DNA of 64,000 nt from IMG/VR virus record IMGVR_UViG_3300020048_000090; one strand, 5' to 3'. The translations under genes and the position numbers were made by a program. The DNA comes from an uncultured virus (IMG/VR IMGVR_UViG_3300020048_000090) (taxonomy: Duplodnaviria; Heunggongvirae; Uroviricota; Caudoviricetes). The notes beneath the pieces are model-generated. The model was not told where the DNA came from, did no database searches, and saw only the letters and a program-made list of their open reading frames with translations. Of this stretch, positions 3,119-39,195 are shown one piece after another (within the stretch, counting starts at the first letter, position 1; the number at the start of each line of letters is the position of its first letter).

Positions 3119-3119
3119 A

Positions 3120-19615: not shown

Positions 19616-21085
19616 ATGTCTGATATTACAATTGACCAAGTAACTACAACTGATCCTACAGAGAATGGTGTGTTTGATGTGCTTATGAGGTCAGTAGACT
19701 CTCATTTAGATAAGCAATATATAGCAGGTAGGATTAAAGGTGCTGATTATGCAACTGTTTATCTAGGAGCATTACAAGCTGTATTACAACAGTCAATTAT
19801 GTTTGTTTTATCAGAGCAGAAAGTTGAGAAAGATATAGAGTTAGCTAGTATACAAATTGAAGCTACACAAGCAGATATTAATATTAAGTTAGAACAATCT
19901 GCTAAAGATTTAGAAGTAAAGTCTCAACAGATTGTTTCTATGATATCTGATGACTTAATCAAAGAAAGACAGGTAGTTGTTACAGAAAACCAATCGGATA
20001 AGGATTTGGTTTTAAAAGACAATCAGATTGAGGCTATACAAACGGATATTAGTACTAAGTTACAGCAGTCAAGTAAAGAACTAGAAGTTAAAGATCAGCA
20101 AATAGCATCTATGATAGCTGATGATCTAGTTAAAGATAGACAAGTTACTGTAGCTGAAACACAGTCAGTCAAGGATTTAGAAGTTAAATCTAGTCAAATT
20201 GAATCTAATCAAACTGATATGTCTGTTAAGTTGGCTCAATCTGCTAAAGAATTGGAGGTTAAATCTCAACAGATTACCTCTATGATTAAAGAAGATTTAG
20301 TAAAAGATAATCAGATTGAATCTATACAAGTAGATATCAACACTAAACTTCAAGAATTAGATAAAGATTTGGAAGTTAAGACCCAACAAATTGTTTCTAT
20401 GGTTAAGGAAGATGTTGTTAAAGATAATCAAATTGAAGCTATTCAGGTTGATATTAATACTAAGTTACAACAGTCATTCAAAGATTTAGAGGTTAAAACC
20501 CAGCAGATTGCTTCTATGGTATCTGATGACTTAATCAAGGACAGACAAGTAGTTGTATCAGAAACACAATCTAGTAAAGATCTAGAAGTAAAAGATACTC
20601 AAATTGATTCTTTACAGACTGATATGGCTGTTAAGTTAGAACAATCTGATAAAGATTTACAGTTAAAGACTGAACAAATTACTGCTTCTATTGTAGATAC
20701 TGCGATTAAACAAGCACAATCTGAGAAAGATTTGATTATTAAAGAGAATCAAGCTTTAGAGATATTAGCTGGTACTACTAGACAGGATAGTTTAGCTGAT
20801 GAACAGATAGTAGCTAGCAATGCTAATACTGCTCTTAAACAAGCTTTAGGTGAGAAGCAAGCTGATGTGTATGAAGGACAAGCTGCTAGCTTTGCTAAAG
20901 AAGCTAGATTTAAAGTATTTAAAGCTCTATTGGATTTAAGAACTACTGGTATGACACAAGAATTACCTGGTCTTAATACTGGTATAGGCACTTCTAGTGG
21001 AAATGCTCTAGCTAATGCTATGTTATCTGATGTAGAAATTACTAATGTTTCTAATGTTATTGCTGATCTTTATATTGCAGTATAA
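19616..21085 (+). CDS. N4 gp54-like tail protein with expanded internal repeats
   Basis: GVFDVLMRSV..HL..QY..GRIKGADYA.VY N-terminus; central QSxKDLEVK repeats. Confidence 0.8.
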   Translation: MSDITIDQVTTTDPTENGVFDVLMRSVDSHLDKQYIAGRIKGADYATVYLGALQAVLQQSIMFVLSEQKVEKDIELASIQIEATQADINIKLEQSAKDLEVKSQQIVSMISDDLIKERQVVVTENQSDKDLVLKDNQIEAIQTDISTKLQQSSKELEVKDQQIASMIADDLVKDRQVTVAETQSVKDLEVKSSQIESNQTDMSVKLAQSAKELEVKSQQITSMIKEDLVKDNQIESIQVDINTKLQELDKDLEVKTQQIVSMVKEDVVKDNQIEAIQVDINTKLQQSFKDLEVKTQQIASMVSDDLIKDRQVVVSETQSSKDLEVKDTQIDSLQTDMAVKLEQSDKDLQLKTEQITASIVDTAIKQAQSEKDLIIKENQALEILAGTTRQDSLADEQIVASNANTALKQALGEKQADVYEGQAASFAKEARFKVFKALLDLRTTGMTQELPGLNTGIGTSSGNALANAMLSDVEITNVSNVIADLYIAV

Positions 21086-23325: not shown

Positions 23326-23339
23326 AAAGGAAATATATT

Positions 23340-23837
23340 ATGAATGGTTTATCTAATCCTTGGAGTAGTTTTAAAGGTTGGGCATTTGGAAATGGTGGTA
23401 CTGCTTTAAATAATGACCAATATAGTTCTATGATACAGGATACTCCAGGTGGAAGTGCTCTAAGTAATTTAGCTATTTCTAATCCTACATTACATGATCA
23501 ACTTTCTTTTGGATTACCTAATACTGGTGGTGCTTTTGGATCTCTAGCTAATTATGGTAAATCTGCATTAAAGTTTGGTGATCAGTATGGTAAAGGTATT
23601 ACAGAAGGTCTAAAAGCTTTTAGTGCTCTTAAAGGTATGAGTAATCAGAAGAGACAGCTTAAAGATGCTAGAGAGAATGCTGATTATCTTAGAAAAGCTA
23701 GTAATGCTGATATTTCTTCTAGAGCTGAAGCTCAAGGTACTAAGAGAGCATTACAGATGGGTTCTAGTCTAGAAGATGCCTATAAGAAAGGTGCTGACTA
23801 TAGTAATGAAAGAATGGCTCAATGGGGTCTTAAATAA
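23340..23837 (+). CDS. N4 gp52-like ejection/virion protein
   Basis: 165 aa, Gly-rich N-half, helical C-half, Cys-free; gene order. Confidence 0.55.
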   Translation: MNGLSNPWSSFKGWAFGNGGTALNNDQYSSMIQDTPGGSALSNLAISNPTLHDQLSFGLPNTGGAFGSLANYGKSALKFGDQYGKGITEGLKAFSALKGMSNQKRQLKDARENADYLRKASNADISSRAEAQGTKRALQMGSSLEDAYKKGADYSNERMAQWGLK

Positions 23838-23848
23838 GGAGTATTGAT

Positions 23849-24733
23849 ATGGCTTTAGAGATTGAACTAGACGAAGATACAGCAGCAAATGAAGCTATTG
23901 ATGCCCAGAAGGGAGAAGCTGAGTATTCAGAACCTGAATCAGAGTTACCTCCTGATATGGAAGAACCAGCACCTAAAGCTAAAGCTAAGGTAGCCTCTAA
24001 GAAGCCTGTACCGAGGGCTAGAGTAGCTCCAAAGAAGAAGGTTGAGGCTAACCCATTAGCTGCTGATGATAAAGATTATGAAGGTCCTGTTAAAGAGGCT
24101 GCTATGAAAGCCGAGAAAGCTACTGCAGATGCTTTGGGTAAAGGTAATTCTTGGGAAAGAACTAAACCTGCTTTTAATCCAAAAAATGATGCTATTCAGC
24201 CAGTAGGTGCTTTAGAAGCTTTGGTTGGTACTAGTGCATTAGTTAAAGGTGGTGCTTCTCTTATTGCTAAAAATGCTGCTACTAGATTAGCAAAACAGAA
24301 AGTTGCTGATGAGATTAGCAATAAAGCTGGAGAAGAGTTAGTAAAAAAAGGAGATATGCCTTATACTAAATCTACAGGAGAAGCTACAACTATTATTCAT
24401 AATAGACCTAACACATCTACAACTATCAAACCCAATCCTGCTAGACAAGCTGCTATGAAAGCAAAAGCTAATAGCAATAATAAGGTTATGCAAAATATTA
24501 AAGAAGATACTAAAAAGTATACTCCAACAGAAGAAATTCCTAGTAAATCACCTTCTGTATATAATAAACCTTTACTAGATACTCAGAAGAGTAAGCAACT
24601 TGAAATTAAGAAAGGTGTTGATAGACCTCCTGTAACTAAAGACACCAGAGAAGCTGCACAAAGAGCTGCTAGAGGTGCTACTGAGAAATATAAAGATAGG
24701 GCTGGTGTTACTATAAAACACAATAGATATTGA
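23849..24733 (+). CDS. hypothetical low-complexity Cys-free protein (possible ejected protein)
   Basis: Strong SD (AAGGAG); acidic N-terminus, K/A/P-rich. Confidence 0.6.
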   Translation: MALEIELDEDTAANEAIDAQKGEAEYSEPESELPPDMEEPAPKAKAKVASKKPVPRARVAPKKKVEANPLAADDKDYEGPVKEAAMKAEKATADALGKGNSWERTKPAFNPKNDAIQPVGALEALVGTSALVKGGASLIAKNAATRLAKQKVADEISNKAGEELVKKGDMPYTKSTGEATTIIHNRPNTSTTIKPNPARQAAMKAKANSNNKVMQNIKEDTKKYTPTEEIPSKSPSVYNKPLLDTQKSKQLEIKKGVDRPPVTKDTREAAQRAARGATEKYKDRAGVTIKHNRY

Positions 24734-24778
24734 TAAAGTATTATTGGTTATTGGATAAAGTTTAATAAAGGAATAGAT

Positions 24779-27550
24779 ATGGCTGGATTACTACAAGGTG
24801 TTAATTTACCCCCTGCAATTGCAATGCCTGCTCCTAGTCAAGCATATTTGAGTGACCCTTTAGGAGGCTTTACAAAGGTGCTAGGAGGCTTCTTAGAAGG
24901 TAGACAGACTGATGCTGCAGCTAGACAGAAAGCAGCTATAGAAGAGGCTACTATGGCTGGAGATGAGAATGCTCTTAGAGCATTGACTCAAGCTGGTGCA
25001 AGCAATCAAGCTGGTCTATGGGATCCAACTAAGCTAGGTGAGGTTCAGAAAGCTGCTAAGACTGCTTTAGGAAGCCATATTATGGGTCAGTTGACTCCTG
25101 ATTTAACTAAAGCTATTAGTACTAATGATATTAAGTCATATTCAAGTATTCTTGATAAATTTAACTTAAATAAACCTTATTTAGATCCAAACCAAGAAAA
25201 AGAATTCTTAGATACATATCAACAGAATTTACAACCTGTACAGTTAGGTAGTGCAAGTGATGCTGCATATAGAGACTATCAACAACAGCATAGTTTTGGT
25301 GCAGCAGACAGAGCAAGTACTATTATCCAAAAAGCACATGGTCTTGTAGGAGATGAGTTCTTTAACTTATTTAATGTTGATCCAATGGGTAATATTATTC
25401 CTATTGATCAAGTTGATCCAAATAAACATCTAGTACAAAGAGATTTACTAACTAAACTTAATACTGAAGTAGATGCTATTAATTTACCTCAAATTACTCC
25501 TGAACAAGGAGAAAATACTTTAAGAAGTGGTTTAAGCAAGTTAGGTATTCCTCTAGATAAGCAAGACGAGACTATTGCTAAGTTTAGAACTAGAGCTGCT
25601 CAAGTAGGTCAGTTAAGTACAGAAGGCCAAGCTAAGTTAGCTACTGCCAATGCAAGTATTACTAAGAATACTGAAAACCAAAAAGCAGCACTAGAAGCTA
25701 CTTATAAAGCTACTAATGCTTTCTTTGCTCAGATGGATGATGGTACTAAAGCTAGATTATCCAAGTTATATGGTACAGATGCAGTTGCTGCAGTTGCTGA
25801 ATTGGAAGCAATGTTTCCAGCAAATAGACTGTGGACAGCTAGCTTAGAAGGTAGGGAGCAAATAAAGAAAGAATTATTTACTCCTTACTTTAATAAAACT
25901 AGTATTAATGGGGTAAAGACTCCAGATATAGCATATAGAGATATCTTATCTGCTTTAGCCATGACTAAAGAAACCTCAAATCTCTTTAATGATTCTGGTA
26001 TTAATGTAACTGACCCAGAAGTAAAGAAACAATTTGAAGATAATCTACTACAAGCTTATATAGATAATAGAGCTGGACTTGGATTAAGCCAAGGTCTTGA
26101 AAAGCAAATATCTAATGTTAAAGAGTATTATGAGAAATTAGCAGATATAGATGCTAGTACAGTAGCACAACAGTTTAAAGCATCAACTAAGATATATAGT
26201 GATGAAGATAAGTATGCTGGAAAAACTCCAGATATATTCACTAATGCTTTAACTAGAGCAGCTCAGAATGCTCCAGAAGCTAGTGGTATACAACCACCCA
26301 CTATTAAAGGTCCTGTAAGTTTACCTAATTTAGATGATGAAGCAGTAGCTAGAATAGATAAAACTTTAAAGAGTAATATATCTGATGCTGAAAGAAAAAA
26401 TCTTACAAAAAGAAAAGATAAAATACTTTCTGGGAAAGTTTTTGAAATCTCTTCAGATACTTCTAATCCTGAAGAAGCACTAAATGCTTTGAGAGTGCAG
26501 CTAGCAAAGTCTAATTTTACTAAAAAGGAACAAGAAGCAGAGTTACGTAGTTTTCAAGCATTAATGGATAGACAACAAAATTTAGCTAAAAATAAATCAA
26601 CTCCAGTAACTACTGGGTCCAATAACCCAGTATATACCGAAGCACAAGTAGCATTGGCTAATGATCGTTTAAATGAAGTAAATGACTTACTGAAAGAACC
26701 TTCTGCAGATAGTCAAGATTTACTTAAAGAAAAGGCTAATTTAGAGCCTATAGTAAATTCAATGGATCCTATTGGTGCTTCTATAAACCCAACAAGTGCT
26801 GCTGTACCAATTCAGGCTACTACCCCCTTACCTATACCTCAAAGGGCTAATGTAGCTAGTCCTAAAGCTCGATTAGATACATTTAATAATACTGTCCAAA
26901 ATCAGAGTAATACTACTAGTGCTCCAAAAGTCACTCCAGCTACAGATAGACTTTCTCAAGCGTTTGCAAGACAATTACAGGATAAGAAGCCAGTAGCTCC
27001 TAAAGTAACTCCTCAAGAAGAGTCTTTGAATATAGCTGTTAGTAAATTAGAAAAGCTTACTGGTGGATTTAAAGCTTCTCCGTTAATGAAGCTAGACCCA
27101 AAATCTGATGCTATAGAAGGTACTGATATTTCTGGTGCAGTGATTGATGTTCTTAATAGCACTGAAATCAATCCTGCTATTGGATTACCTTTAGCTGCTG
27201 CTGTAGCTATTTTAGGTGGTGGTAGAGCTATTCCTAACTTAGCAAAGAGGATGCCTAAGATACTTGCTAATGCTGGTAAAGTAGCCCCAACAGGTAGTAA
27301 TGTAGTGTTAGCTAGTGGTAATGTTGGAGCCAATAAAGCTATTGTCACATCTATGATAGCAAGAGCTGCTGCTACTGATAAAGCAAGAATGGATTCTCTC
27401 TATAAAGAGTATTGGAGAAAAGGTTGGCAAAAAGATATGGTAGAGTTACCTAAAACTGATCTACAATGGTCTGATGCTATAGCCAATGCAAATGCTTATG
27501 TAGCAGAAAGAATTAATCCTCGTGAATTTAAATCTCTTATGAAAAAATAA
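24779..27550 (+). CDS. N4 gp51-like internal virion/ejection protein
   Basis: 923 aa, Cys-free, helical, directly upstream of vRNAP; assigned by position. Confidence 0.55.
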   Translation: MAGLLQGVNLPPAIAMPAPSQAYLSDPLGGFTKVLGGFLEGRQTDAAARQKAAIEEATMAGDENALRALTQAGASNQAGLWDPTKLGEVQKAAKTALGSHIMGQLTPDLTKAISTNDIKSYSSILDKFNLNKPYLDPNQEKEFLDTYQQNLQPVQLGSASDAAYRDYQQQHSFGAADRASTIIQKAHGLVGDEFFNLFNVDPMGNIIPIDQVDPNKHLVQRDLLTKLNTEVDAINLPQITPEQGENTLRSGLSKLGIPLDKQDETIAKFRTRAAQVGQLSTEGQAKLATANASITKNTENQKAALEATYKATNAFFAQMDDGTKARLSKLYGTDAVAAVAELEAMFPANRLWTASLEGREQIKKELFTPYFNKTSINGVKTPDIAYRDILSALAMTKETSNLFNDSGINVTDPEVKKQFEDNLLQAYIDNRAGLGLSQGLEKQISNVKEYYEKLADIDASTVAQQFKASTKIYSDEDKYAGKTPDIFTNALTRAAQNAPEASGIQPPTIKGPVSLPNLDDEAVARIDKTLKSNISDAERKNLTKRKDKILSGKVFEISSDTSNPEEALNALRVQLAKSNFTKKEQEAELRSFQALMDRQQNLAKNKSTPVTTGSNNPVYTEAQVALANDRLNEVNDLLKEPSADSQDLLKEKANLEPIVNSMDPIGASINPTSAAVPIQATTPLPIPQRANVASPKARLDTFNNTVQNQSNTTSAPKVTPATDRLSQAFARQLQDKKPVAPKVTPQEESLNIAVSKLEKLTGGFKASPLMKLDPKSDAIEGTDISGAVIDVLNSTEINPAIGLPLAAAVAILGGGRAIPNLAKRMPKILANAGKVAPTGSNVVLASGNVGANKAIVTSMIARAAATDKARMDSLYKEYWRKGWQKDMVELPKTDLQWSDAIANANAYVAERINPREFKSLMKK

Positions 27551-27559
27551 GGATATATT

Positions 27560-30500
27560 ATGGCTTATGAACCTATTCTGCCAAGTGCAACTGCAGCATT
27601 TGATCCAAATGTATTAAATCCTTATAGTGGTTTTACTACAGAATGGGCATTGCGTGATCCAGTAAAGGAGAAGGTAGATTCTCTCAATGCAGCTAAAGCA
27701 GAGAAAGAAGAGTTATTTAGAAAGCAGAAAGAAGAAAGAGCTGCTAAGTACTTTATGTCTGATGCAAATGCACAGAGTGGTTTAGGTGGAGTAGTAAATA
27801 CAGTAGGTGGTTTTTTTGGTACTGCAGCAAGAGTAGGTGGCAATATATTAGGTGTTCCTGAGTTAGTAGCAGAGTCTGTAAAACCTGCTGTTGATTTCAT
27901 GAGCCAATATATACCTGAAAGTGTTAAAGATGCTTATGGAGCTGTTGATGAAGCTCTAACTATTAGGAGTGATAATAAGACTGCAAAAGATTTAACTAAA
28001 GTTTTTAGAGATCCTACAGGTCTTGTTAGTGACTTTGGTAAGTTTATTGGAGATAGTTGGGAAGGTTATTATAATCCAGTAAATGTAGAAGAGTTACAGG
28101 CAGATTTTAGTAAAGACTTTGACACTAATGAAGGTGTTCTAAGAGTAGCTGGTGCATTAGCTAAGACAGCAGCAACTAATCCAGTTAAAGGTGCAGAGTT
28201 ATTTGTTACTAACTTTCCTTATATGTATGCTGCTGCTCAAAAAGGTATACCAGGTGCTGCAGCATTCTTGGGTATGGTTAATGAGTTTAATAATGAGTCT
28301 TTAGAAAAGTACAAAGAAACTCATGATGGACAGTTACCTGATGCAAAAGCACAAGCAGTTATGTTGGGTACTGGTGTAGCTGCAGCAGCTACAGAAAAAG
28401 TAGCTTCTATGTTCCAGTTAGGTAAGATAGGTGGTCCTAATATAGCTCCTAAAGTCTTATCAGTGCCTACTAGATATGCGACTGGTGGTGTTTCAGAATT
28501 TGGTCAAGAAGGTACTCAAACAGCTCTTACTAATATTGGTGGATATCAAGAACAATTATTAGAAGATCCAGATTTAGTAGATAAGACAATCAAAAAATCT
28601 GTTGTAGCTGGTGCTATGGGTATGGCTTCATCTTCTGTAGGTAGTGCTGGTATTAAAGCTATGCAGCCTATAGATGAACAAGCTAAACGAGCTATAGGGG
28701 CTATTAAAGCCTTCCAGAAGACTCCAGAATACCAAGGCTTAGGTACAACAAAAGAACCTGCTGGAGCAGCTTATACAGCCTTTGCTAGCACTGTTGCTGA
28801 TACTGCTATAGCTCCTGAAGCTAAGCAAGCAGCATTTAATAATGCTCTAGCTGCTATAGTGTCTAATCCAGATCATCCTAATATCAAGATCATTGCTGGA
28901 AGATTAAAAGATACTGCTACTAAAGCAGGTATTACTATTCCAGAGAGTGTTAATACACTATTAACTGATATAGCTTTAGTTAAGCCAAGTAAAGCTGCTA
29001 CATTCTATAGAGATACTAGAAATGCTTTCTTGGATAAACAATTATCTGAAAAGAATATTGAAGAGAATCCAACTGCTGCAGTTAATAGACTTAAAGTGAG
29101 TAAATTTAAGAGCACTAACATTAAAGAATATAATGTGGAGCTAGAAGAGATACGTTCTATCACAAACAATCTTATTAGTAGTGTAGGACAGCAAGTAAAA
29201 AATGGAACTATATCTAAAGAAGATGGTTATAAGCTTAATGAAACTATTGCAACTATTAGTGATGGATTCCTGACTCATGGTCAGAATTTACTTAAGAAGA
29301 ATAAAGCTGAAGTTATCCAAGAAGTAGCTACTGCTAAAGTAGAAGATAAAGATGATATTAAGTTAGGTAGTAATATAGATGGTTTAATAAGCTTATTAAC
29401 AGCTAAAGAAGGTAAGCTAACTACAGAAGAGATTGAACAAGTACTTAACTCTCCTGTCTTGACTGAACATCAAAGAAGAGTATTTACTAACTTTAAGAAT
29501 GTAAATATGGAAGAGGTTAATACTCACTTGTTCCAAGGTGGTATGAATGCAAATAAAGAAGAGTTTAAAGGCTTTAATGAGTACTTAAGAGAGATTGAGA
29601 AAGCTAAGCTTACTAATGATCAGGTTAAGTTAGATGAGAGTGTTAAAGATTTAGAAAATTGGTCTAATAGATATATGACCAATAGAACCAATGTTATTAA
29701 AGCTTATGAAGGTTTAGGAGTTGGTAAAGAAGTAACAGTACCTAATCTAAGTAATGGTGAATTTTGGCTTAAACAAGGTGTTAGTAAAAACTTTGTTAAT
29801 AATCTTAAGAAGGAAGTACAAGCATTTGCTCTTGGATTAGACCAAGCATATCTTATTGCTGGTAGAGAGAATCCTAGCATAGAAGCCTCTCAGACTACCC
29901 AGAATGAGATTACTACAGCTACCCCTAGCACTACTATTCCTCCTGCTTCTACAGCTCCTATAGAGGCTTCTAACGATATCTTTAAGAAGTATGGTTGGAA
30001 TAAGACTGAAGGAAAGTCAGAATATACCAAAGGTAACTTGAGTATCCATAAGAAAAATACAGATAATAAAGTTCATATTGGTGTAGTGGGTATTAAAAAT
30101 GATGTTCTTGATAAGCTTACTTTTGACACTTCAGCAGAAGCATTAGATGCTACTCGTTTCTTAGAAATAGAAGAAGGGATCATAATAGAAGGTAAGCTTT
30201 ATGGTTTTGGTGAGATGGATGGTATTGTTGCTAATTATTTAAGTGAAGATTCTCTAAATAGAGCAGCTTTAGTCTTTAATAGAGCACAAGCTCCTTCAGA
30301 TTACTGGAATGAGTTTGAAAGTCTTGGTTTAGAGATAACAGAGGACAATACTTTAGTAGATACTAACACCCGTGAAGTTATTGCTACAAGAGGTCCTAAA
30401 CAAACTCCTACTATTACTACTTCTTCAGTATCTTTTATAGAACCTTCTGTTGATTCTTTTATTAAAATCTTTGATACAGATACCACATATGATAAATGGA

Positions 30501-33500
30501 GTAATACTCGTGATGGATCTGATCGTGCTGTATTACAAGATCAAATACAAACAGTAGCAAAAACTTATAGTGGTAAAGTTACTCCTGAAACTAAAGAAAG
30601 TACTATTAAAGAATTAACAAAGCAGTTTAAGTGGTTTCGTAATGCTTCACCTGAAGAACGTAATGCTGCTGTTGATAGTTTAATGGCTGTAACAGCCCCT
30701 TCTACAGCTCCAACTACTCCAGTTGCTACTACCTTATTAAATAAAGAAATTAAAAATAACACTGAAGCTGTAGAGTTTATTTATGAAAATAATCCAAAGA
30801 TTAAGTCAGTAGGTACTCTAGTACAATACAAGAGATATTTAAGAAATCTTTTTAAAGACTCTGCATTCAATAAGCTAATATTCCACTATACAGAGTCTGG
30901 GAAAATAGATAAAAGCCTTAAATCTAATAAAGATGAGAATGCTTTATTCTTCTTTGATAATATTAAAAATGCACAGAGTTGGTCTGACTGGACCATACGA
31001 GGAAAAGCTCCTGTAGGCAATATTGTAGTAGCTAAGGCTGATTTAAAGAAAGAAAATACAGAAACCTTAGAAGGAGCTAGTATTGGTGGATTTAGTATCC
31101 CAGGTTTAATAGCGGATAAACTTAAGAATACAGAGTATTCTTCTTTTATCATCAATGATGTGGTTGATATGGGTGTTGAAGGCACACAGGTAGTTATTAA
31201 TGAAGGGGATATTGTTTATTTAGGGTCTAACAGAGATGTAGATTTATTTAAAGAGTGGGCAGCTACTACCCCCTCAACTACACCTGTAGCATCTCAGGAA
31301 GGTACTTCTCATGAGACTACAGAGCCAATAGTAGAAGAAGTAGTTCCTTCTGTATCTGCAAAAGAAGTAATAGATGGGATTAATAAAAAAGCAGAAGATT
31401 CTTTAATCAATTTTATTAAAAAGAATCCTACCTATAAGTTAAAAGATTTGGTTTCTTTAATAAATAACTTATTGGGTAACTTTGCTCCTATTATGAGTAA
31501 AGACTCTATTATTAAGAATACAACAGAATTTGTTAATTCATTAAAAAATGTTATACCTGAAAAACAGTTAGATAATTTTAAAGATGTTCTTAATGAATTA
31601 GAATCCAGTTGGAATATTAAAGTAAATGTTTTTACTAGATTGGCTCAATCATTACGAGGAAATGCTAAAAATTTAGCTATAGGGGCTATTAAACCTTTTG
31701 AAGATTCTTTTACTATTAATAATAACACTATATTTGCTAAATCCAATAAACCTATTAGAGATTCACTTAGTAAAGCTAAATTAGATTCAAGAGTAGCTGC
31801 TTCTTTAATTAAAGAGTTAGAAGATCTAGCTAATAAAATAAAAGAAGGTATATCCAATACTCAAATTAAAACTCTTGCTCAAAATCCTGCATTACATCTA
31901 ACTGATAATTATTTAAATATATTACCAGGAGTAGCAGAAGCTATCTCTATAGCAGCTCATACGTATGTATCTAGCCAAGGTAATTCATTATTATTTAATA
32001 ATATGGATACTCTTAGAATGATGTTTGGTTTTGATAGTAGAGAGAGACTTCCTAATCCTGTATTTGATTATACTTATTCAGGTAAGAGTCTACCTACTGT
32101 AGCTGATCATATTGGTAGAGATGCTTATCAGATGTTAGGTATCAAGACAGAAAGTGAAATAGCTAGAAAGAGAATGATTCAAGCTTTAGGTATTATGGGT
32201 ATTATTGGATTAAATAGCTCTAATTATACTAAGCAGATTAGTGTCCCTTTGGATGATTATTTAGCTAACTTTAAAACAGATCCTTCTGGTGAATCATCTG
32301 TTGATAGAGATAGTGAGAAGGAAGGTGATGAGAGAAATAAGTTGTTTGTTGCACTAGAGTCTAGAGATGATGCTGAGACTGGATTTAAGGTAGCTAATGG
32401 TAAAGCAGAAATTACTATAAATAGATATAGAGAGAATCCAGATATTAGAGTAGCTCTAAAGGATATGTTTGGTGTAGAAAATAGATCAATTAATCCAATT
32501 ATATCTCCAGATGATCCAAGACTAAAACCTTCTAAGTATCTAACGGGTACTCAACAGGAAGTTAACTCTATTGGTGCAGAAGCACTAGAGAAGCTTAACA
32601 GTAGAGCATTTGTATTCAATAAAACAGGTTATGCTAACTTTATTAATCTATATAACGATTCAAAAAGAAAAGATATTCTACTGAAAGAGTTTGGATTTAC
32701 ATTCAACTTAGAGAATGAACCTATATTCTTTAGAAAAGCTCTTAAAGCTAAGAATGATCTTATCTTAAAAGAAATCCAATCTCTTATTGACTATAAAGCA
32801 GCTTTAGATGCTACTGGTAAGGAAGAATTCTTTATACCACATTCTCTTACTAAGTTTGGTAGGGTTATGCTTGATGGTAGGTCTGGGATTAATCCAAGAG
32901 AATCTAAGATACTTAGGTTCTTGGTTAACTTAACTAACTTTAACTGGAAGCTTGACCAAACAATACCAGAGCATATGTTTAACTTTAAACATGCTGTTAT
33001 GGGTAACTTTGGTAATGAAGTAAGTAAAACTACTAAAGGAGAGGTAGAAACTGGATTTGATGATTTAGTTGCAGAGATAGAAGAGCTAGGATTGGAAGAG
33101 ACAGATGCTAATGACATATTAGATTTAGTTGTACGTAAAAAGACAGATCATCCTACTGAAGCTATGAATGCTATTATTAATGTAATTAGATATATTAAAT
33201 CTAAAGGTAAAGCATTTGATGTAGTTATCTCTCTAGAAGTAGATGGTAAAACTAACGGTATGGCTTGGGCTTATCTACAATCTGGTGGTCAATTAGATCC
33301 TGATTTACTTACAGCAATGGGTTTGTTTACTAAACCTAATCAGACTGAATTTGTTGATGAGATGGCTAAAGATGGTATGAATGATACCTATCAAAGTGTA
33401 GCTATTGTTTGGGGACAGTTTCTAGATATAGTAACTGCTGGTTGGGGTAAGGAAGCTTCAGCATACTTTGCAGCACAACAAGCTTATCTAGGTAGCTTCT

Positions 33501-35515
33501 TTAAACCAGATACTCGTGAGGTATCTAAAGCAGGTAGAGAATTATCCAAATATCCATTTATGAAGATGATGTTTGGTCAAGGTATCAATGCTATGGTAGC
33601 TGATGTGGGTAATAAACTGTTAGAAGGTATCTATAAAGAGTTTGGTGACATTAAGAAAGCTTCTATAGATGGATTAACTACATCAGAACAGATACATCAA
33701 AGATTAGAGATATTGAATGCTAATGTAGCAAGGTTAGCAAGTACAGAGCCAAGTGCTATAAACTTTACTGTAACTGATATGGATTACAGATTGGATCCAT
33801 CTTTAGAAGAAATGATTATTAGAAGTGTTACTACTACTTATGGTGAAGCATTAAAATCAACTATTGAACATATGTTTGGTGGTTTTATGAAGTATAGAGA
33901 AGCTATCAATACAGCTATGAATATCTTAGGTGATCTGTTTATTCAGAAGCTTAATCTAGTTAAAGCTGCTCATATAGAAAAGACAGGTAAAACTTTAACT
34001 GATCAAGAGATAATGGATCTAATATATGATACAGAAGGTGAATTGTATAAATTATTACCTGCTTTCCTAACTCCTAATGCTTCTAAGATTGAAGAAGGAT
34101 TATTTGCTGTTAAGATGTTTAAACAGATTAGTCCTGAAGATAAAGTACAGGTAACTGTTAAGTCTGGTAGTATCCAAAACTATAATCTAGACGGTACTCC
34201 TCAAAAAAATAAGACTAGTTCAGTTACTGGTGGTATCAAACAGTTAACCTTTAGAGAGGGTGGATTGATGTCATTTGTTGGTGGTACACATTCACAAGAT
34301 GCAGCACAAGCACAACGTATACTAAGAGAATTTGAGTCTTTAGGTGTGCATGATGCATTCTATTTTAGTATCCCAGATTTAACTAAAGGTTCTTATAGAC
34401 TTAATGAAATGTTTGGTGAGATGCAGAAGTCATATAGTATGGCTAAAGCTGTGCTAGATAGGTTTAATGAGGTTTATGAGATTGCAGGTAGTGGTTCTAA
34501 ATTAGCAAAGTTAGGTATTGTAGGTGTGGGTGCTAATCGTTTAAAAGATAGATTTATAGCATTTAAAAGAGGAGTAGATGGAAAAGATCCACTATACTCA
34601 GCAATAGAGTTAGCTGTTAATACTACCCCAGATAATGTAAAGAAAGTACTTATGATACAACAGTTTCCTTTCTTAGGTTCTGCAGCAGCTACAGTACAAG
34701 TAGAAGATATGGTTTGGGATACAGATTTTACTTCTACTGGGCCAAGTAAAACAGAAGAAACAAAACCTACCATAACTCCAAAGAGTAGATATAAGGGTGG
34801 TTTTGATTCTTCAGGTAAAGGTACTCCAGATGGTGATGGTAAAGATAAAGCTATGCGTGAGGTTGCTGATGCCTTTATAGGTGAGATTTCTGGTATATTT
34901 AAAGGACGTGGTGAGGGATTTCAGGGTAGTTTTTATAAACAAAAATTTAATAAAGCTACTAGTACATATACAAGCCTTATGGCTATTTTGGATAAAACAA
35001 AAGAACCTGGTCTTACAACTTGGGATACTGATGGTGATATGGAGGCTGTTATTACAGGAGCCTTTGTATTAGATAATCCTAAAGTTGTAATGCTTGCTAG
35101 AAATAAAGAAACTGGACGTTGGGATATAGGTAAATTAACTAAACAGCTTATTAAAGATGCACATGATAAAGGTGCTATCTTTGTAGTTGGTGATATGCCT
35201 AATGTAGATTCACAATTCATTGATTACTTACAAGAAATAGGTGCTTCTTTTACTGTTTACCATACTGGATCTAATTCTAGAATCCAAGTAGAAGAAACAA
35301 AACCTGTAGTAGATTCAGTTGTAGTGTCTGAACAAGCTGAAGCTGTTGATTCAATATTAACTGATACTGCTAAATATCTTAAACTAAAAATTGAGAGTAT
35401 AGATTTTATGATGACTACTAAAGAAGAAGATGTTTTTATAAAAGAATTCTTTGAGAAGTATAGCCAAGCAGATATAGCAAAAGCTAAACAAACACTTAAT
35501 TGTCAAGGAAAATAA
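27560..35515 (+). CDS. virion RNA polymerase (N4 gp50-like), N-terminal and polymerase portion, with inserted domains
   Basis: Single-subunit RNAP motifs: TKFGR (T/DxxGR), EVDGKTNG (A), RELSKYPFMKMMFG (B), GVHDAF (C); 2651 aa, one Cys. Confidence 0.92.
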   Translation: MAYEPILPSATAAFDPNVLNPYSGFTTEWALRDPVKEKVDSLNAAKAEKEELFRKQKEERAAKYFMSDANAQSGLGGVVNTVGGFFGTAARVGGNILGVPELVAESVKPAVDFMSQYIPESVKDAYGAVDEALTIRSDNKTAKDLTKVFRDPTGLVSDFGKFIGDSWEGYYNPVNVEELQADFSKDFDTNEGVLRVAGALAKTAATNPVKGAELFVTNFPYMYAAAQKGIPGAAAFLGMVNEFNNESLEKYKETHDGQLPDAKAQAVMLGTGVAAAATEKVASMFQLGKIGGPNIAPKVLSVPTRYATGGVSEFGQEGTQTALTNIGGYQEQLLEDPDLVDKTIKKSVVAGAMGMASSSVGSAGIKAMQPIDEQAKRAIGAIKAFQKTPEYQGLGTTKEPAGAAYTAFASTVADTAIAPEAKQAAFNNALAAIVSNPDHPNIKIIAGRLKDTATKAGITIPESVNTLLTDIALVKPSKAATFYRDTRNAFLDKQLSEKNIEENPTAAVNRLKVSKFKSTNIKEYNVELEEIRSITNNLISSVGQQVKNGTISKEDGYKLNETIATISDGFLTHGQNLLKKNKAEVIQEVATAKVEDKDDIKLGSNIDGLISLLTAKEGKLTTEEIEQVLNSPVLTEHQRRVFTNFKNVNMEEVNTHLFQGGMNANKEEFKGFNEYLREIEKAKLTNDQVKLDESVKDLENWSNRYMTNRTNVIKAYEGLGVGKEVTVPNLSNGEFWLKQGVSKNFVNNLKKEVQAFALGLDQAYLIAGRENPSIEASQTTQNEITTATPSTTIPPASTAPIEASNDIFKKYGWNKTEGKSEYTKGNLSIHKKNTDNKVHIGVVGIKNDVLDKLTFDTSAEALDATRFLEIEEGIIIEGKLYGFGEMDGIVANYLSEDSLNRAALVFNRAQAPSDYWNEFESLGLEITEDNTLVDTNTREVIATRGPKQTPTITTSSVSFIEPSVDSFIKIFDTDTTYDKWSNTRDGSDRAVLQDQIQTVAKTYSGKVTPETKESTIKELTKQFKWFRNASPEERNAAVDSLMAVTAPSTAPTTPVATTLLNKEIKNNTEAVEFIYENNPKIKSVGTLVQYKRYLRNLFKDSAFNKLIFHYTESGKIDKSLKSNKDENALFFFDNIKNAQSWSDWTIRGKAPVGNIVVAKADLKKENTETLEGASIGGFSIPGLIADKLKNTEYSSFIINDVVDMGVEGTQVVINEGDIVYLGSNRDVDLFKEWAATTPSTTPVASQEGTSHETTEPIVEEVVPSVSAKEVIDGINKKAEDSLINFIKKNPTYKLKDLVSLINNLLGNFAPIMSKDSIIKNTTEFVNSLKNVIPEKQLDNFKDVLNELESSWNIKVNVFTRLAQSLRGNAKNLAIGAIKPFEDSFTINNNTIFAKSNKPIRDSLSKAKLDSRVAASLIKELEDLANKIKEGISNTQIKTLAQNPALHLTDNYLNILPGVAEAISIAAHTYVSSQGNSLLFNNMDTLRMMFGFDSRERLPNPVFDYTYSGKSLPTVADHIGRDAYQMLGIKTESEIARKRMIQALGIMGIIGLNSSNYTKQISVPLDDYLANFKTDPSGESSVDRDSEKEGDERNKLFVALESRDDAETGFKVANGKAEITINRYRENPDIRVALKDMFGVENRSINPIISPDDPRLKPSKYLTGTQQEVNSIGAEALEKLNSRAFVFNKTGYANFINLYNDSKRKDILLKEFGFTFNLENEPIFFRKALKAKNDLILKEIQSLIDYKAALDATGKEEFFIPHSLTKFGRVMLDGRSGINPRESKILRFLVNLTNFNWKLDQTIPEHMFNFKHAVMGNFGNEVSKTTKGEVETGFDDLVAEIEELGLEETDANDILDLVVRKKTDHPTEAMNAIINVIRYIKSKGKAFDVVISLEVDGKTNGMAWAYLQSGGQLDPDLLTAMGLFTKPNQTEFVDEMAKDGMNDTYQSVAIVWGQFLDIVTAGWGKEASAYFAAQQAYLGSFFKPDTREVSKAGRELSKYPFMKMMFGQGINAMVADVGNKLLEGIYKEFGDIKKASIDGLTTSEQIHQRLEILNANVARLASTEPSAINFTVTDMDYRLDPSLEEMIIRSVTTTYGEALKSTIEHMFGGFMKYREAINTAMNILGDLFIQKLNLVKAAHIEKTGKTLTDQEIMDLIYDTEGELYKLLPAFLTPNASKIEEGLFAVKMFKQISPEDKVQVTVKSGSIQNYNLDGTPQKNKTSSVTGGIKQLTFREGGLMSFVGGTHSQDAAQAQRILREFESLGVHDAFYFSIPDLTKGSYRLNEMFGEMQKSYSMAKAVLDRFNEVYEIAGSGSKLAKLGIVGVGANRLKDRFIAFKRGVDGKDPLYSAIELAVNTTPDNVKKVLMIQQFPFLGSAAATVQVEDMVWDTDFTSTGPSKTEETKPTITPKSRYKGGFDSSGKGTPDGDGKDKAMREVADAFIGEISGIFKGRGEGFQGSFYKQKFNKATSTYTSLMAILDKTKEPGLTTWDTDGDMEAVITGAFVLDNPKVVMLARNKETGRWDIGKLTKQLIKDAHDKGAIFVVGDMPNVDSQFIDYLQEIGASFTVYHTGSNSRIQVEETKPVVDSVVVSEQAEAVDSILTDTAKYLKLKIESIDFMMTTKEEDVFIKEFFEKYSQADIAKAKQTLNCQGK

Positions 35516-35517
35516 TA

Positions 35518-38500
35518 ATGGCTAAATCATGTGGTGTATTGGATCCAAGAATAACCAGATTATTAAATGAGACTGCTAAGACTCTCAAGGAGTCTGGTAT
35601 GTCTACAGAACAGGCTAGAGAAGCTGCTAGAGAGAAGGTAATCCAAGGATTGACTAATGCACTAGAGCAATCAGATACTCTTGGATCATCACCTATTCCT
35701 AAACAGCAAGCTACTATTACTGAAAAGTACTCTGAACCTTTAACAGGTAACATAGATAGATTGTTTAAAGGTCTAGCTAAGGAAGGTAATAAGACTGATT
35801 CACCAAGTCATTCAGCTACTCTGCAAGGTGTTATGGATAACGTCATATACAAGGTTATGCATCACCTAGATGGCTTTATTTTGAAGGTAGCTGAAGGTGG
35901 GCATACTACCTATGGATCATTCAAGAAGAACGCTAAAACCATATCTATAGTGTCTGGAATCAAGCCAATATTGAATGCTATCCAAATGTCTGCTCAAGAG
36001 GTTATGGCTCATGAGGTAGTACATGCTGTGACTGCTGTAGCCCTCAAGGAAGGACCTTTCAGACTAAAGAGAGCATCTAGGTATCTCTTTAATCTAGCTA
36101 AGGCTAATATCAAGCCTGAAGACCTTATGCAGGGTATTGCTCCTGGTTCTACTATAGAAGCTGAGAGAGCTGCTGCTAAAGAGAGATGGGAATACATCTT
36201 TAATAGAGATGAAGGTATCTATGAATTTGTAGCTTTTGCTAATACAAATGAAAAGATCATTGAACTATTAAAGAAGATTCCACTTAAGACTAAGGTTACT
36301 AATGCAACCACATTGTTTGGTGGATTTACTAATCTATTAGCTGCTATTGTAGACTTTGTTACTCTTAAAACATATAACATTAAAGGTGATACAGTAGATC
36401 AAGCATTACACAATCTAACTCTAGAATTAGCTGGTATTAAGCAGAAGAATCTTAATATGCTTACTCTAACCAGCAATAGCTTAGAAGCTGGTAGGTATGT
36501 AGTTACTAAACCAGTAAATATGATATTAGATGGATTGGTTAAGTATGCTCAATATAAACGTACTCCTGATAGTCATTTCAAGAATGCTATTATGGCTGTA
36601 AAGAGCTTACAGATACTTAATCCAATAGTAGATTTTGGTAGTGCTCTAAGTAGAGCTACAGGTAGTATTATCAAACACAGAGATAGCTTTATCATGAATC
36701 TAGTGACTAAGCTTCCTCAAGAGCTTGTTGGTATGACTGATGAGAATAAAGCTTGGTATAAGCTGTTAACTTGGTCTAAACAGGTTATTGATACCTCTAG
36801 GCATAGACAGAAAGAATCTGTGCTTATAGAGCTAAGAGACTCTTGGGTAGCTTCTGTAAATGATGATGTTAAGAGAGCTTTATATTCAACCTTACTAACT
36901 ACAGATTTAGATGATATAGCTGTATTTGATGATAAAGCTAATGTAGTTAATACAGATGAGCTTATTAAGCTTATGGAAGATGATAAATCACTATCTACTG
37001 CTATAGACAAAGAAATAGCTGAATTAAATAAAGTAATGGGAGATAAAGTAAGCTTAGGTATTATTAAACAAACTAAAGGTTTAAGTATGCTTATGGTTAG
37101 AAAACAAACCTTTAATAAGCTTAATCAGATGTTATCTGCTCATAATATTGCTAAAGGATTATATGATCCTAACTATGTAAAGACTGGTAAAGAAGAACAA
37201 GCTTTACCGATAGTTACAAGATTAAAGACACTATATGCTCTTCAATATACTAATAAAGTACATAGAGAAGCTACTGCTAAGGTTATGAAGAAAGAGTTTA
37301 CTAATGCTAATGTTAATGGAATTAAAGCTATTCTTCACTTAAAGGGAGTATTCAAGAGAGATTCTATTGGTATGTTATTTGATAATAATCCGTTGAGTAT
37401 GACTGATGGATATACTGCTGATGTATTTGATCCAAATGTGATGGTAGAGTTTAGCTCTAAGCCTAATGACAAAGAGATTATAGATCGTGGATTTGAGATG
37501 ATTCCTGATCCATTACCTAAAGATAAGAATGATCCAAATAGAATAAGACAATATATGTATGTCTCTAATCATAATGGATTAGTTACTCATCAAAAGTCTA
37601 TTGTCGGTATGACCTCTAAACAAGCTATGGGTACTGATTTAGCGGATATCTATAGAAGGGATGATGACACTGTAGCTGCTTACAGAAGAGCCAATGATGA
37701 TACCTTTAAGATGCGTAAATCAATAGATCCAAAGGATATCTATACTGCTTCTATTAATGAAGAAGATACAACCTCTCTTATTCCTACCATAAGTACTGAA
37801 ACTGGTAAGATCATTGGTTATAGATACATTATGAGTGAAGCTAATCGTATTAAATGGTTAAAGAAAGATACTAGAGTAGATAAAGTATTAGCTACTATGT
37901 TTGAAAGGATGACTGATAAAACCAATACACCTATAGTTAATGATGCTGTAGTACTAGAATTACAGAGAGAAGCTAAAGAAATATATCCTATAAGACCCGG
38001 ACAGTTTATTACTATAACCAAAGATCATCCTGATTATGGTGAGTTGTATAGATTGATTCCTGAGGATATGAAGAGACAGTTAGATGGGGTATTTGGTTCA
38101 GGTAAGCTAGTAGTAAGAGAACCAATGATAGATATTATATTTGGTTATAGAAAGTATTCTGTTTCTACTGATGCTATCAATAGTTATTTAGTAAAATCTA
38201 TTGTTGGTATTTACAAGATTGCTGGATCAAGTAAAGGTAAAGCTGTTACCCATTTGAGAATGGTAGAACAAGGTTGGGAAGAGATTATAGGTGAATTAAA
38301 AAATACAATTGTATTAAAGACATTTGTATTACCTTTTAATATCTTATCTAACCTTAATATTTCTTTTATGCATGGAATGCCATTAGAGTACATTTCACGT
38401 AAACAAGGTGAAGCTATTATAGCTATTGAATCTTATACTAATGATATTAGAAATAAGACTATTCTAGAGAGACAGATTAAAGCTGCTGGTTTGGGTAAGG

Positions 38501-39195
38501 ATAAGAAAGATGAATTACAAGGTAAGCTTAATCAGCTTAATTTTGATATTGATAATAATCCAGTTAAACCACTTGTAGATAAAGGTTTATTGTCTAGCAT
38601 TGTGGAAGATATCAATTTAGATATGGATTCAGGTTATAGATCATCTATAGCTGAATGGGTTGAAAAGAAGACTGCTAAGGTTCCTGAAGGTGTCAAGAAC
38701 ACTTATAAATGGGCTTATCTAACAAGAAGTACAGAAGGATACAAGTTCTTAGAAAAGACCACTAGATACTCTGATTTTGTAGCTAGATATGCTATGTATA
38801 ACTGGTATCTAGAGAAGGGTGGTTATGCTGCTATAACTGATCCAAAGGCTAAAGCAAAGGTAGAAGAGAATGCATTAAAGATCATTATAGAGACATTTGT
38901 TAACTATGATGTTCCTACCAGTAGAGAGCTTCAATATCTGAATGATATTGGATTAGCAATGTTTACTAAATATGCTTTACGTATTCAGAAGTCTTTATTC
39001 TTACTGATCCAAGCTAGACCAGATAGTGTTATAGCTAAATATGCTTTAGAGCATTATATGGGTAATGCTGTAGAACCATTTGATAGTCTTGGATTACCTT
39101 GGCTTAATAATCCTTTAAATGATTTTGGAGTTATGGCAGTACCTGGAGCTGCATTAGCTTGGGGAGTAGTAGCTGCTATTATTCCGGGATTGTAA
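35518..39195 (+). CDS. vRNAP C-terminal domain encoded as separate gene (zincin-like HExxH)
   Basis: ATG at 35518 with AAGGA SD; HEVVH...EFVAFANTN; C-terminal YSDFVARY...FVNYD...GLAMF resembling the N4 vRNAP C-terminus. Confidence 0.8.
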   Translation: MAKSCGVLDPRITRLLNETAKTLKESGMSTEQAREAAREKVIQGLTNALEQSDTLGSSPIPKQQATITEKYSEPLTGNIDRLFKGLAKEGNKTDSPSHSATLQGVMDNVIYKVMHHLDGFILKVAEGGHTTYGSFKKNAKTISIVSGIKPILNAIQMSAQEVMAHEVVHAVTAVALKEGPFRLKRASRYLFNLAKANIKPEDLMQGIAPGSTIEAERAAAKERWEYIFNRDEGIYEFVAFANTNEKIIELLKKIPLKTKVTNATTLFGGFTNLLAAIVDFVTLKTYNIKGDTVDQALHNLTLELAGIKQKNLNMLTLTSNSLEAGRYVVTKPVNMILDGLVKYAQYKRTPDSHFKNAIMAVKSLQILNPIVDFGSALSRATGSIIKHRDSFIMNLVTKLPQELVGMTDENKAWYKLLTWSKQVIDTSRHRQKESVLIELRDSWVASVNDDVKRALYSTLLTTDLDDIAVFDDKANVVNTDELIKLMEDDKSLSTAIDKEIAELNKVMGDKVSLGIIKQTKGLSMLMVRKQTFNKLNQMLSAHNIAKGLYDPNYVKTGKEEQALPIVTRLKTLYALQYTNKVHREATAKVMKKEFTNANVNGIKAILHLKGVFKRDSIGMLFDNNPLSMTDGYTADVFDPNVMVEFSSKPNDKEIIDRGFEMIPDPLPKDKNDPNRIRQYMYVSNHNGLVTHQKSIVGMTSKQAMGTDLADIYRRDDDTVAAYRRANDDTFKMRKSIDPKDIYTASINEEDTTSLIPTISTETGKIIGYRYIMSEANRIKWLKKDTRVDKVLATMFERMTDKTNTPIVNDAVVLELQREAKEIYPIRPGQFITITKDHPDYGELYRLIPEDMKRQLDGVFGSGKLVVREPMIDIIFGYRKYSVSTDAINSYLVKSIVGIYKIAGSSKGKAVTHLRMVEQGWEEIIGELKNTIVLKTFVLPFNILSNLNISFMHGMPLEYISRKQGEAIIAIESYTNDIRNKTILERQIKAAGLGKDKKDELQGKLNQLNFDIDNNPVKPLVDKGLLSSIVEDINLDMDSGYRSSIAEWVEKKTAKVPEGVKNTYKWAYLTRSTEGYKFLEKTTRYSDFVARYAMYNWYLEKGGYAAITDPKAKAKVEENALKIIIETFVNYDVPTSRELQYLNDIGLAMFTKYALRIQKSLFLLIQARPDSVIAKYALEHYMGNAVEPFDSLGLPWLNNPLNDFGVMAVPGAALAWGVVAAIIPGL

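Follow-up and report, generated by a model that had tools for sequence, protein, structure and literature searches.

The virion RNA polymerase (vRNAP) of this uncultured freshwater phage is encoded by two adjacent genes, and the only cysteines of the two products lie at the ends that face each other. Profile matches identify ORF1 and ORF2 together as an N4-type vRNAP (Schitoviridae) whose C-terminal domain (CTD) is now a separate gene. The cut lies between the polymerase domain and the CTD, and we consider it probable that the two genes are translationally coupled and that the facing lone cysteines form an inter-chain disulfide. The window, as used here, is the whole 64,000-nucleotide stretch of virus record IMGVR_UViG_3300020048_000090.

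ORF1 (27560..35515, + strand; 2651 aa) consists of the vRNAP N-terminal domain (NTD), a T7-like RNA polymerase (RNAP) domain (31496..34483, +; residues about 1313 to 2308, placed by BLASTP against one-piece vRNAPs and equivalent to N4 residues about 1027 to 1991), an inserted domain of 179 aa (34754..35290, +; residues 2399 to 2577), and a C-terminal tail of 74 aa (35291..35512, +) that terminates ...AKAKQTLNCQGK. The 3' end of the gene reads ACA CTT AAT TGT CAA GGA AAA TAA, in which the TGT codon (35501..35503, +) encodes Cys2648, the sole cysteine of ORF1, four residues from the end. The TAA stop (35513-35515) and a 2-nt spacer, TA, occupy 35513..35517 (+) and are followed by ORF2 (35518..39195, +; 1225 aa), the vRNAP CTD as its own protein, in a frame that is -1 relative to ORF1. 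ORF2 begins ATG GCT AAA TCA TGT (MAKSC), with the ATG at 35518 and with its sole cysteine, residue 5, encoded by the TGT codon at 35530..35532 (+). A Shine-Dalgarno-like site, AAGGA (35505..35509, +), lies 8 nt upstream of the ORF2 ATG. The earlier note had read the end of ORF1 as ...TLNCQGK with a TGT at 35501 and had placed the next gene 2 nt past the stop, with an AAGGA Shine-Dalgarno sequence, the start MAKSC, and a TGT at 35530; a recheck of the sequence gave the same picture throughout. Its by-eye impression that there is no further cysteine in ~3880 aa also held, the computed count being one cysteine each in ORF1 and ORF2 (3876 aa in total).

The CTD has become a separate gene, as the earlier note had proposed, because the two parts of profile phrog_2206 fall on different ORFs: positions 205 to 1881 match ORF1 residues 191 to 2306 (E value, 2.3e-92), and positions 2261 to 3372 match ORF2 residues 78 to 1190 (E value, 2.9e-197). 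ORF2 also matches the N4 vRNAP structures 9pnr and 11gp. The catalytic motifs of T7-like polymerases (T/DxxGR, A, B, and C) were aligned among ORF1, N4, and 11 relatives. ORF1 has the GR, the Asp of motif A (EVDGKTNG), the Arg/Lys of motif B, and the HDA of motif C; where motif B otherwise has Tyr, ORF1 and its relative P0004 have Phe. The gene order (portal, capsid, phrog_2050, phrog_2220, ORF1, and ORF2) is the same as that of N4 gp59 to gp50. Pfam searches of ORF1, ORF2, and the ORF1 tail gave no match. A vRNAP is typified by one polypeptide of about 3000 to 4400 aa with no cysteine; here, there are ORFs of 2651 and 1225 aa and two cysteines, both at the junction termini, with zero elsewhere.

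Cysteine is scarce in the whole ejection operon. Five cysteine-free virion or ejection protein genes (19616..27550, +), including those for the phrog_2050 structural protein and the phrog_2220 (N4 gp53-like) protein, precede ORF1 in an order that agrees with that of N4 gp54 to gp51. Over the 6493 aa encoded by seven consecutive ORFs between 19616 and 39195, there are just two cysteines, both at the ORF1/ORF2 junction; for comparison, the window has 37 ORFs of 150 aa or more, with 116 cysteines in 16,990 aa. The same avoidance is seen across the family. N4 gp50 has 3500 aa and 0 cysteines, in keeping with the description of N4 vRNAP in the earlier note as a single cysteine-free chain of ~3500 aa. 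Cysteine is absent from 55 of 57 distinct complete one-piece vRNAPs from IMG/VR loci (6 cysteines in 202,540 aa overall) and from 97 of 103 one-piece vRNAP representatives. The paper on Pseudomonas phage DEV reports cysteine contents of 0.00075% in vRNAP homologs versus 0.865% in proteomes (PMC11445570).

Other naturally split vRNAPs have the same pattern. Split termini were placed by BLASTP (placement with MAFFT --addfragments was noisy), and the search of protein representatives used the first 1200 aa of ORF2. Nine clean splits can be read on both sides, and in all nine the lone cysteine of each piece lies at the facing end. Seven of the nine break at the other domain boundary, between the NTD and the RNAP domain, with one to five other genes between the pieces; in all seven contigs, the sole cysteine lies at position -2 to -4 of the upstream piece and at +3 to +6 of the downstream piece. 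RNAP-plus-CTD pieces with a complete N terminus have their sole cysteine at residues 3 to 10 in 13 of 13 loci. Among relatives with the same split as that in the window, five are seen as CTD pieces (P0003, P0017, P0053, P0076, and P0125), one as an NTD-plus-RNAP piece (P0177), and one as both (L141), and the co-conservation of the terminal cysteines, which the earlier note had proposed as a check, was found in these relatives. P0003, which is 42% identical, begins MAKSC and has no other cysteine; the sole cysteine is at residues 3 to 10 in the other four CTD pieces and at position -4 in P0177 (25% identical). In L141, the sole cysteine of ORF1 is in its terminal ...GDCL and that of ORF2 in its initial MSC, and the junction differs in being an ATGA overlap.

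The split state requires at least 12 changes on the CTD tree, and of 11 independent contrasts, 10 have the N-terminal cysteine on the side of the split and 0 have the opposite (p 0.002); in the worst-case set of contrasts, 6 to 8 of 11 were in favor (median p 0.016). These comparisons indicate that lone terminal cysteines at facing ends are a rule for split vRNAPs and not chance. That the two cysteines arose by chance and have no function is a reading that has only the small number of residues in its favor, and to which we give a negligible probability; it is already contradicted by the comparative data, since the cysteines are kept at 42% identity and below and are coupled to the split state in those contrasts, and the probability that two lone cysteines land by chance in the last 4 plus first 5 residues is about 6e-6. 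A literature search found no paper that describes terminal cysteines at vRNAP splits or states such a rule for N4-like phages.

Some loci depart from the rule. No cysteine occurs in P0129 or in P0099, the latter being a CTD-only form of 1329 aa, and P0081, P0113, and P0127 are ambiguous. Breaks that lack cysteines occur in eight contigs (L036, L042, L061, L066, L077, L080, L106, and L123); these broken loci, which have open frames that overlap or abut, a stop in frame, or Ns, look like errors or pseudogenes. For annotation, lone terminal cysteines help to distinguish genuine gene splits from frameshift errors and to recognize the virion proteins that make up a single ejected chain, also where their genes are not adjacent.

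The junction could in principle hide a single protein, made by programmed -1 frameshifting at A_AAA_TAA or broken up by a sequencing error, in which the two cysteines would form an intra-chain CX10C loop. The ORF2 frame is indeed open from 35500, giving a 13-nt overlap with the end of ORF1, and a shift of one base within the A run would join the frames. However, contigs of four independent lake metagenome runs span the junction with 0 indels and with 0 base differences at 35388-35553, so that the two ORFs of the earlier note stand; independent gene calls (P0004, P0016, P0173, and P0174) start or end at identical residues; and the Shine-Dalgarno-like site lies 8 nt upstream of the ORF2 ATG. Outside this virus, the L141 junction has a different form, other genes separate the cysteine-tipped pieces in seven contigs, and the comparable proteins of cyanophage A4 are reported as separate chains in the structure (PMC12002296). 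A programmed -1 frameshift was rejected, there being no conserved slippery site or frame relation (the ATGA overlap in L141, a 5-nt gap in A4, and intervening genes elsewhere), and we regard the single-protein reading as a whole as very improbable.

The 179-aa insert of ORF1 is absent from close relatives. P0004, which is 97% identical, lacks it, and contigs of runs X5 and X8 part from the window sequence exactly at 35290. The insert is 40 to 48% identical to a domain in giant non-vRNAP proteins; a lead to SLOG/YspA-like domains (Atlas) scored under 0.9. The 74-aa tail lies outside the vRNAP profile match, and P0004 has the same last 41 residues; a PDB search with the tail returned nothing meaningful. 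In the phage collection, blastn of the junction region gave no match, and tblastn of ORF2 and P0024 gave 473 records, all below 60% identity, with 0 isolates having the same split. A metagenome contig scan returned one distant one-piece relative, the P0004 contig being absent; a genome contig scan gave two matches of 55 residues in Oscillospiraceae MAGs, which are not vRNAP relatives; and viral contig scans with P0002, P0177, and P0076 as queries returned one distant locus or none, the partner genes of P0003, P0017, P0053, P0076, P0125, and P0177 not being among the returns.

Lone cysteines at facing ends are a rule common to the split relatives, which argues that a disulfide probably joins the two pieces of the polymerase at these ends. 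For this phage, we infer an inter-chain disulfide between Cys2648 and Cys5 by analogy with A4. ORF1 and ORF2, which are probably translationally coupled, are cut in the inter-domain region before the CTD, and both chains keep the family's avoidance of cysteine but for one residue at the facing end. The disulfide would form in the virion, from the ORF1 C terminus to the ORF2 N terminus, and the linked pair, 3876 residues in all, would be packaged and would pass the narrow tail channel as one near-linear thread. Since virions assemble in the reducing cytoplasm, the bond would be possible only after lysis, and prior noncovalent docking of both chains must be assumed. Reduction in the host cytoplasm would then presumably separate the chains again.

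The same reducing conditions at assembly also speak for the alternative that the terminal cysteines are selected but form no bond with each other, instead binding a shared metal, linking each chain to a third virion component, or acting only transiently in assembly. In L028-L030 there are three terminal cysteines (Cys4 of a gp53-like protein, -2 of the NTD piece, and +6 of the RNAP piece), and cysteine pairing is not always one-to-one, because the third sits on the gp53-like protein. The bond, moreover, has been seen in A4, which is not an N4-like phage. On the other hand, the cysteines pair one-to-one in six of the nine clean splits and always lie on two ends that are contiguous in one-piece relatives, two thiols alone would make a poor metal site, and A4 is reported to have a direct Cys-Cys bond of the same geometry. 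We judge the no-mutual-bond alternative to be unlikely.

Two further roles for these cysteines were rejected. A split intein would call for an N-intein of ~100 aa that has Cys as its first residue and for a C-intein with Cys, Ser, or Thr after it; ORF1 has only 3 residues beyond Cys2648 and ORF2 only 4 ahead of Cys5, and there was no Pfam match. A lipoprotein cysteine at residue 5 was rejected on inspection of the sequence, in which no hydrophobic signal lies upstream of Cys5.

An inter-chain disulfide would bear on what is described as an open question of the N4 field, namely, the passage of a polymerase of 3500 residues through a tail channel of ~35 Å, for which a beads-on-a-string thread has been proposed (PMC13434306). 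The same source places flexible linkers between the domains of N4 vRNAP at residues 907-1007 and 2102-2123, and the natural vRNAP breaks map to these inter-domain linker regions. That the cuts lie exactly at inter-domain regions and that the only cysteines are at the cut ends suggest that the chain must stay physically continuous. More tentatively, and with considerable doubt, giant ejected phage proteins in general might have to leave the capsid as one thread, in which a cut in an inter-domain linker would need a terminal Cys-Cys clasp to rejoin the pieces head to tail. The clasp would double as a redox switch, with its oxidized state in the virion and its reduced state in the cytoplasm of the host. 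Reduction would here free the polymerase from the CTD, which is auto-inhibitory in N4; in the NTD|RNAP splits, the domain shed by the polymerase would be the membrane-bound NTD.

N4 gp50 and DEV gp71 resemble the ORF1/ORF2 pair in having homologous N-terminal, T7-like polymerase, and C-terminal domains, in being the last gene of the late/ejection operon, and in near-total avoidance of cysteine. They differ in being one chain, whereas here there are two with one cysteine per facing end, and ORF1 has in addition the 179-aa domain, the 74-aa tail, and the Phe in place of the motif B Tyr. The need of the N4 CTD for encapsidation is given in a review as unpublished data (PMC4496689, ref 78). N4 RNAPII (gp15 and gp16) is described there as likewise a phage single-subunit-type T7-like polymerase from two genes (PMC4496689). 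In contrast to the vRNAP described here, it is split inside the catalytic domain, forms a cytoplasmic heterodimer, and is not ejected.

The closest parallel to the cysteine arrangement is cyanophage A4 (Anabaena phage A-4L), in which cryo-EM is reported to reveal a disulfide from gp27 Cys1715 to gp26 Cys5 in the pre-ejectosome (PNAS 2025, PMC12002296). In the genome record (KF356198), gp27 (1717 aa) and gp26 (1114 aa) each have that cysteine only. As with ORF1 and ORF2, the two genes are neighbors on one strand and encode giant proteins of the virion interior. The only cysteine is 3 residues from the end of gp27 and residue 5 of gp26, compared with Cys2648 of 2651 and Cys5 of 1225 here, and short motifs are alike (MSKHCG in A4 and MAKSCG here; ...PCQF in A4 and ...NCQGK here). 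In A4, 5 nt separate the gp27 stop from the next ATG, compared with 2 nt here. However, A4 belongs to a different family, the Saffermanviridae, and has no polymerase in the pair. Homology of the junction modules to gp27 and gp26 was rejected, Smith-Waterman comparison against shuffles showing no similarity (z -0.9 to 0.5) and the proteins falling in different PHROG families; the likeness is confined to a few residues around the cysteines, and the link to A4 is an analogy, because the junction modules show no detectable similarity to gp27 and gp26. The accessible text of the A4 paper states no general rule and draws no tie to gene splitting (PMC12002296). By that analogy, the terminal-cysteine pattern of split vRNAPs has a disulfide precedent of the same geometry in A4.

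ORF1 (27560 to 35515), the 2651-aa piece carrying the N-terminal domain (NTD) and RNA polymerase (RNAP) domain of the virion RNA polymerase (vRNAP), ends in ...TLNCQGK, with a TGT codon at 35501 and a TAA stop at 35513 to 35515. ORF2, the 1225-aa C-terminal domain (CTD) piece, has its ATG at 35518, two bases past that stop, and reads MAKSC, with a TGT codon at 35530; an AAGGA Shine-Dalgarno (SD) sequence lies 8 nt upstream of the ATG. The earlier note had described, by eye, lone cysteines flanking a split vRNAP, and the computed count matched this exactly: residue 2648 of 2651 is the sole cysteine of ORF1, residue 5 of 1225 is that of ORF2, and neither ORF has a cysteine elsewhere. Over seven consecutive ORFs (19616 to 39195; 6493 aa), cysteine occurs only at the two junction positions; across the window, the 37 ORFs that reach 150 aa or more together contain 116 cysteines in 16,990 aa. 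ORF1 and ORF2 are two coupled genes with lone cysteines at their facing ends.

Both pieces match the virion RNA polymerase family phrog_2206, ORF1 over profile positions 205 to 1881 and ORF2 over positions 2261 to 3372, and ORF2 also matches the solved N4 vRNAP structures 9pnr and 11gp. The gene order upstream (portal, major head protein, phrog_2050, and phrog_2220) is that of N4 gp59 to gp51. When mapped by BLASTP via one-piece relatives, the polymerase homology of ORF1 stops near N4 residue 1990 and that of ORF2 starts between residues ~2045 and ~2390, so that the cut brackets the N4 RNAP-CTD linker (residues 2102 to 2123; PMC13434306). The T7-like motifs are kept in ORF1 when it is aligned with N4. 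The motif B tyrosine (N4 Tyr1678) is replaced by phenylalanine at ORF1 residue 2005 (33572 to 33574), as in P0004, a 97% identical relative, and is kept in the other 11 aligned sequences. In T7 RNAP, the same Tyr-to-Phe change relaxes discrimination against dNTPs. No blastn match to the junction region was found in the phage collection, and tblastn identities to isolates were ~25 to 30%; judged by sequence, the phage is distant from all of them.

The C-terminal half of the CTD (ORF2 residues 562 to 1187) is in addition a match to phrog_19273 (E value of 7e-47), a 4846-position family of unknown function, so other giant phage proteins end in the same module. An HExxH motif at ORF2 residues 165 to 169 (36010 to 36024) is invariant or nearly so in the CTD alignments and is absent from N4 at the aligned place; in most relatives, the CTD may be, or may once have been, a zinc metallopeptidase.

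Near its end, ORF1 carries a 179-aa insert domain (34754 to 35290) that is lacking in P0004 and in the strains of metagenome runs X5 and X8, the contigs of which part from the window sequence precisely at 35290. The insert recurs at 40 to 48% identity in giant (2195- to 4589-aa) non-vRNAP proteins (P0006 to P0015) and resembles SLOG/YspA/YAcAr-like domains weakly (Atlas scores below 0.9); it appears to be a mobile cargo domain. Four of these giant proteins, found only via this common domain, have cysteines at their extreme ends (P0006, ...EKCK; P0007, ...ECSHLFK; P0009, ...EQCK; and P0012, ...DCR), and P0007 and P0012 also start with MNC. The terminal-cysteine habit seems, from these sequences, to reach beyond N4-like polymerases.

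The split itself recurs in independent data. The gene call of P0004, from an independent assembly, ends at the same ...NCQGK, and the independent gene calls P0016, P0173, and P0174 start with M[A/D]KSC. Part of the stretch was present in 20 of 22 listed runs from 18 studies (lake and freshwater metagenomes). A single fused ORF in the reads had been named as a possible counterfinding; leaving aside the possible source run, four runs yielded contigs that span the junction, none with an indel. A minor fused ORF1-ORF2 form may exist alongside the split, as contigs drop rare variants. These four runs' contigs had no base differences over 35388 to 35553, although the flanks varied, with 9 differing sites among the 98 nt on the ORF1 side and 14 among the 297 nt on the ORF2 side. 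This 166-nt island, invariant in four lake populations, extends from the final 42 codons of ORF1 across the spacer into the opening 12 codons of ORF2.

The rule of lone cysteines at facing ends held in all nine contigs showing both pieces. The RNAP|CTD cut was seen in the window and in locus L141, where ...GDCL overlaps MSC... via ATGA and the profile breaks at 1885 and 2266. P0177, a 2117-aa NTD+RNAP piece 25% identical to ORF1, has its sole cysteine at -4; the terminal cysteines are conserved in relatives with the same split. In loci L013, L017, L018, L028, L029, L030, and L038, the cut is NTD|RNAP, at N4 residues ~810 to 1000, at the inter-domain linker (907 to 1007; PMC13434306). Their N-terminal pieces, which match vRNAP NTD profile positions 43 to 902 where detectable, have the sole cysteine at -2 to -4, and the RNAP+CTD pieces have it at +3 to +6. 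With one to five other genes intervening between the two pieces, frameshift fusion is ruled out as a general explanation. The N-terminal piece of L017 (2 to 4243) contains a Dda-like helicase domain (phrog_325; E value of 1.7e-52). The gp53-like (phrog_2220) proteins of L028 (471 to 2708), L029 (1140 to 3365), and L030 (455 to 2710) start with MPTC or MASC, Cys4 being a third terminal cysteine beside the vRNAP pair; that of the window (21085 to 23325) is cysteine-free.

Broken vRNAP frames without cysteines were found in eight contigs (L036, L042, L061=L095, L066, L077=L118, L080, L106, and L123) and at a second break in L038. In these contigs, the open frames overlap or abut, or one in-frame stop intervenes; N4 coordinates are continuous across the breaks, most of which lie inside domains. 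Three contigs come from one IMG/VR sample number, with 16 to 17 Ns in two and 1 N in the third, and for L123 two intact one-piece twins exist (L126 and L121). We read these frames as probable errors or pseudogenes. A 13-nt frame overlap is present at the window junction too, but this junction differs from such breaks in its SD site, ATG, read support, and cysteines. L077 (7592 to 17320) and L106 (1488 to 13675), with 1 and 17 Ns and the same sample number, hold cysteine-free three-piece vRNAPs, which may be due to sequencing error or may represent another type of split that needs no clasp.

The vRNAP family avoids cysteine. The 3500-aa N4 gp50 is free of it, and among 57 complete, distinct one-piece vRNAPs from IMG/VR loci, 55 are as well (6 cysteines in 202,540 aa); cysteine is likewise suppressed across 191 Schitoviridae, as described in the DEV paper (PMC11445570). 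Among the best 150 of 2429 ORF2 matches in the representative library, 118 were cysteine-free, and 25 of the 32 cysteine-bearing representatives had a cysteine within the first 10 residues, as the only one in 24. Short forms accounted for 24 of these 25; the exception, P0029, was rejected as an over-called start, the same gene in L050 starting later and being cysteine-free. Classed by N4 coordinates, CTD-only forms had the N-terminal cysteine in five of eight cases; P0123 and P0022 are truncated calls, the former of the 2866-aa P0175 (whose start reads MATSC) and the latter of a longer ORF, and P0099 is a standing exception. It was present in 18 of 28 RNAP+CTD forms. Of the 10 lacking it, 6 are apparently truncated, as they start within the polymerase domain; P0129 may be an exception, and P0081, P0113, and P0127 have long unaligned N termini and are ambiguous.

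A FastTree tree of the CTD comprised 68 rows of our choosing, without short forms judged truncated: 36 of 103 one-piece representatives and N4; 19 cysteine-bearing RNAP+CTD proteins and 4 from loci; and 5 CTD-only proteins, L141, the window, and P0099. On this quick tree with long branches, split forms are scattered among one-piece forms, which requires a minimum of 12 changes; well-supported branches force 11 of these. ORF2 groups with P0003 and P0017. In 11 independent one-piece/split contrasts, the N-terminal cysteine went with the split in 10, with none opposite and one tie (P0099; P = 0.002); with four ambiguous cysteine-less short forms counted as splits, it did so in 6 to 8 of 11, again with none opposite (median P = 0.016). 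The tree comparisons show that the lone-cysteine rule tracks the split state.

We propose that the ORF1 and ORF2 chains would dock noncovalently in the cytoplasm and then be packaged together, and that oxidation of the two thiols after lysis would yield an ORF1-ORF2 disulfide. As the bond would lie 4 residues from one chain end and 5 from the other, the joined product would be topologically almost a single thread, suiting the beads-on-a-string passage proposed for N4 vRNAP (PMC13434306). The absence of other cysteines would avoid wrong bonds in the periplasm, an idea cited in PMC11445570. Hypothetically, reduction in the host cytoplasm would part the chains; as the N4 CTD represses the polymerase (PMC13434306), release from it might matter.

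Literature searches returned no paper on terminal cysteines at vRNAP splits, and neither "cysteine" nor "disulfide" occurs in the text of the N4 structure paper. A precedent is cyanopodophage A4 (KF356198), for which cryo-EM shows a disulfide between gp27 Cys1715 and gp26 Cys5 (PMC12002296), published as a single structural detail. The disulfide-forming cysteine is the only one in A4 gp27 (1717 aa) and likewise in gp26 (1114 aa), and gp26 starts 5 nt past the gp27 stop. The A4 proteins have no significant similarity to the window junction proteins beyond the few residues around the cysteine, where MSKHCG in A4 resembles MAKSCG in ORF2.
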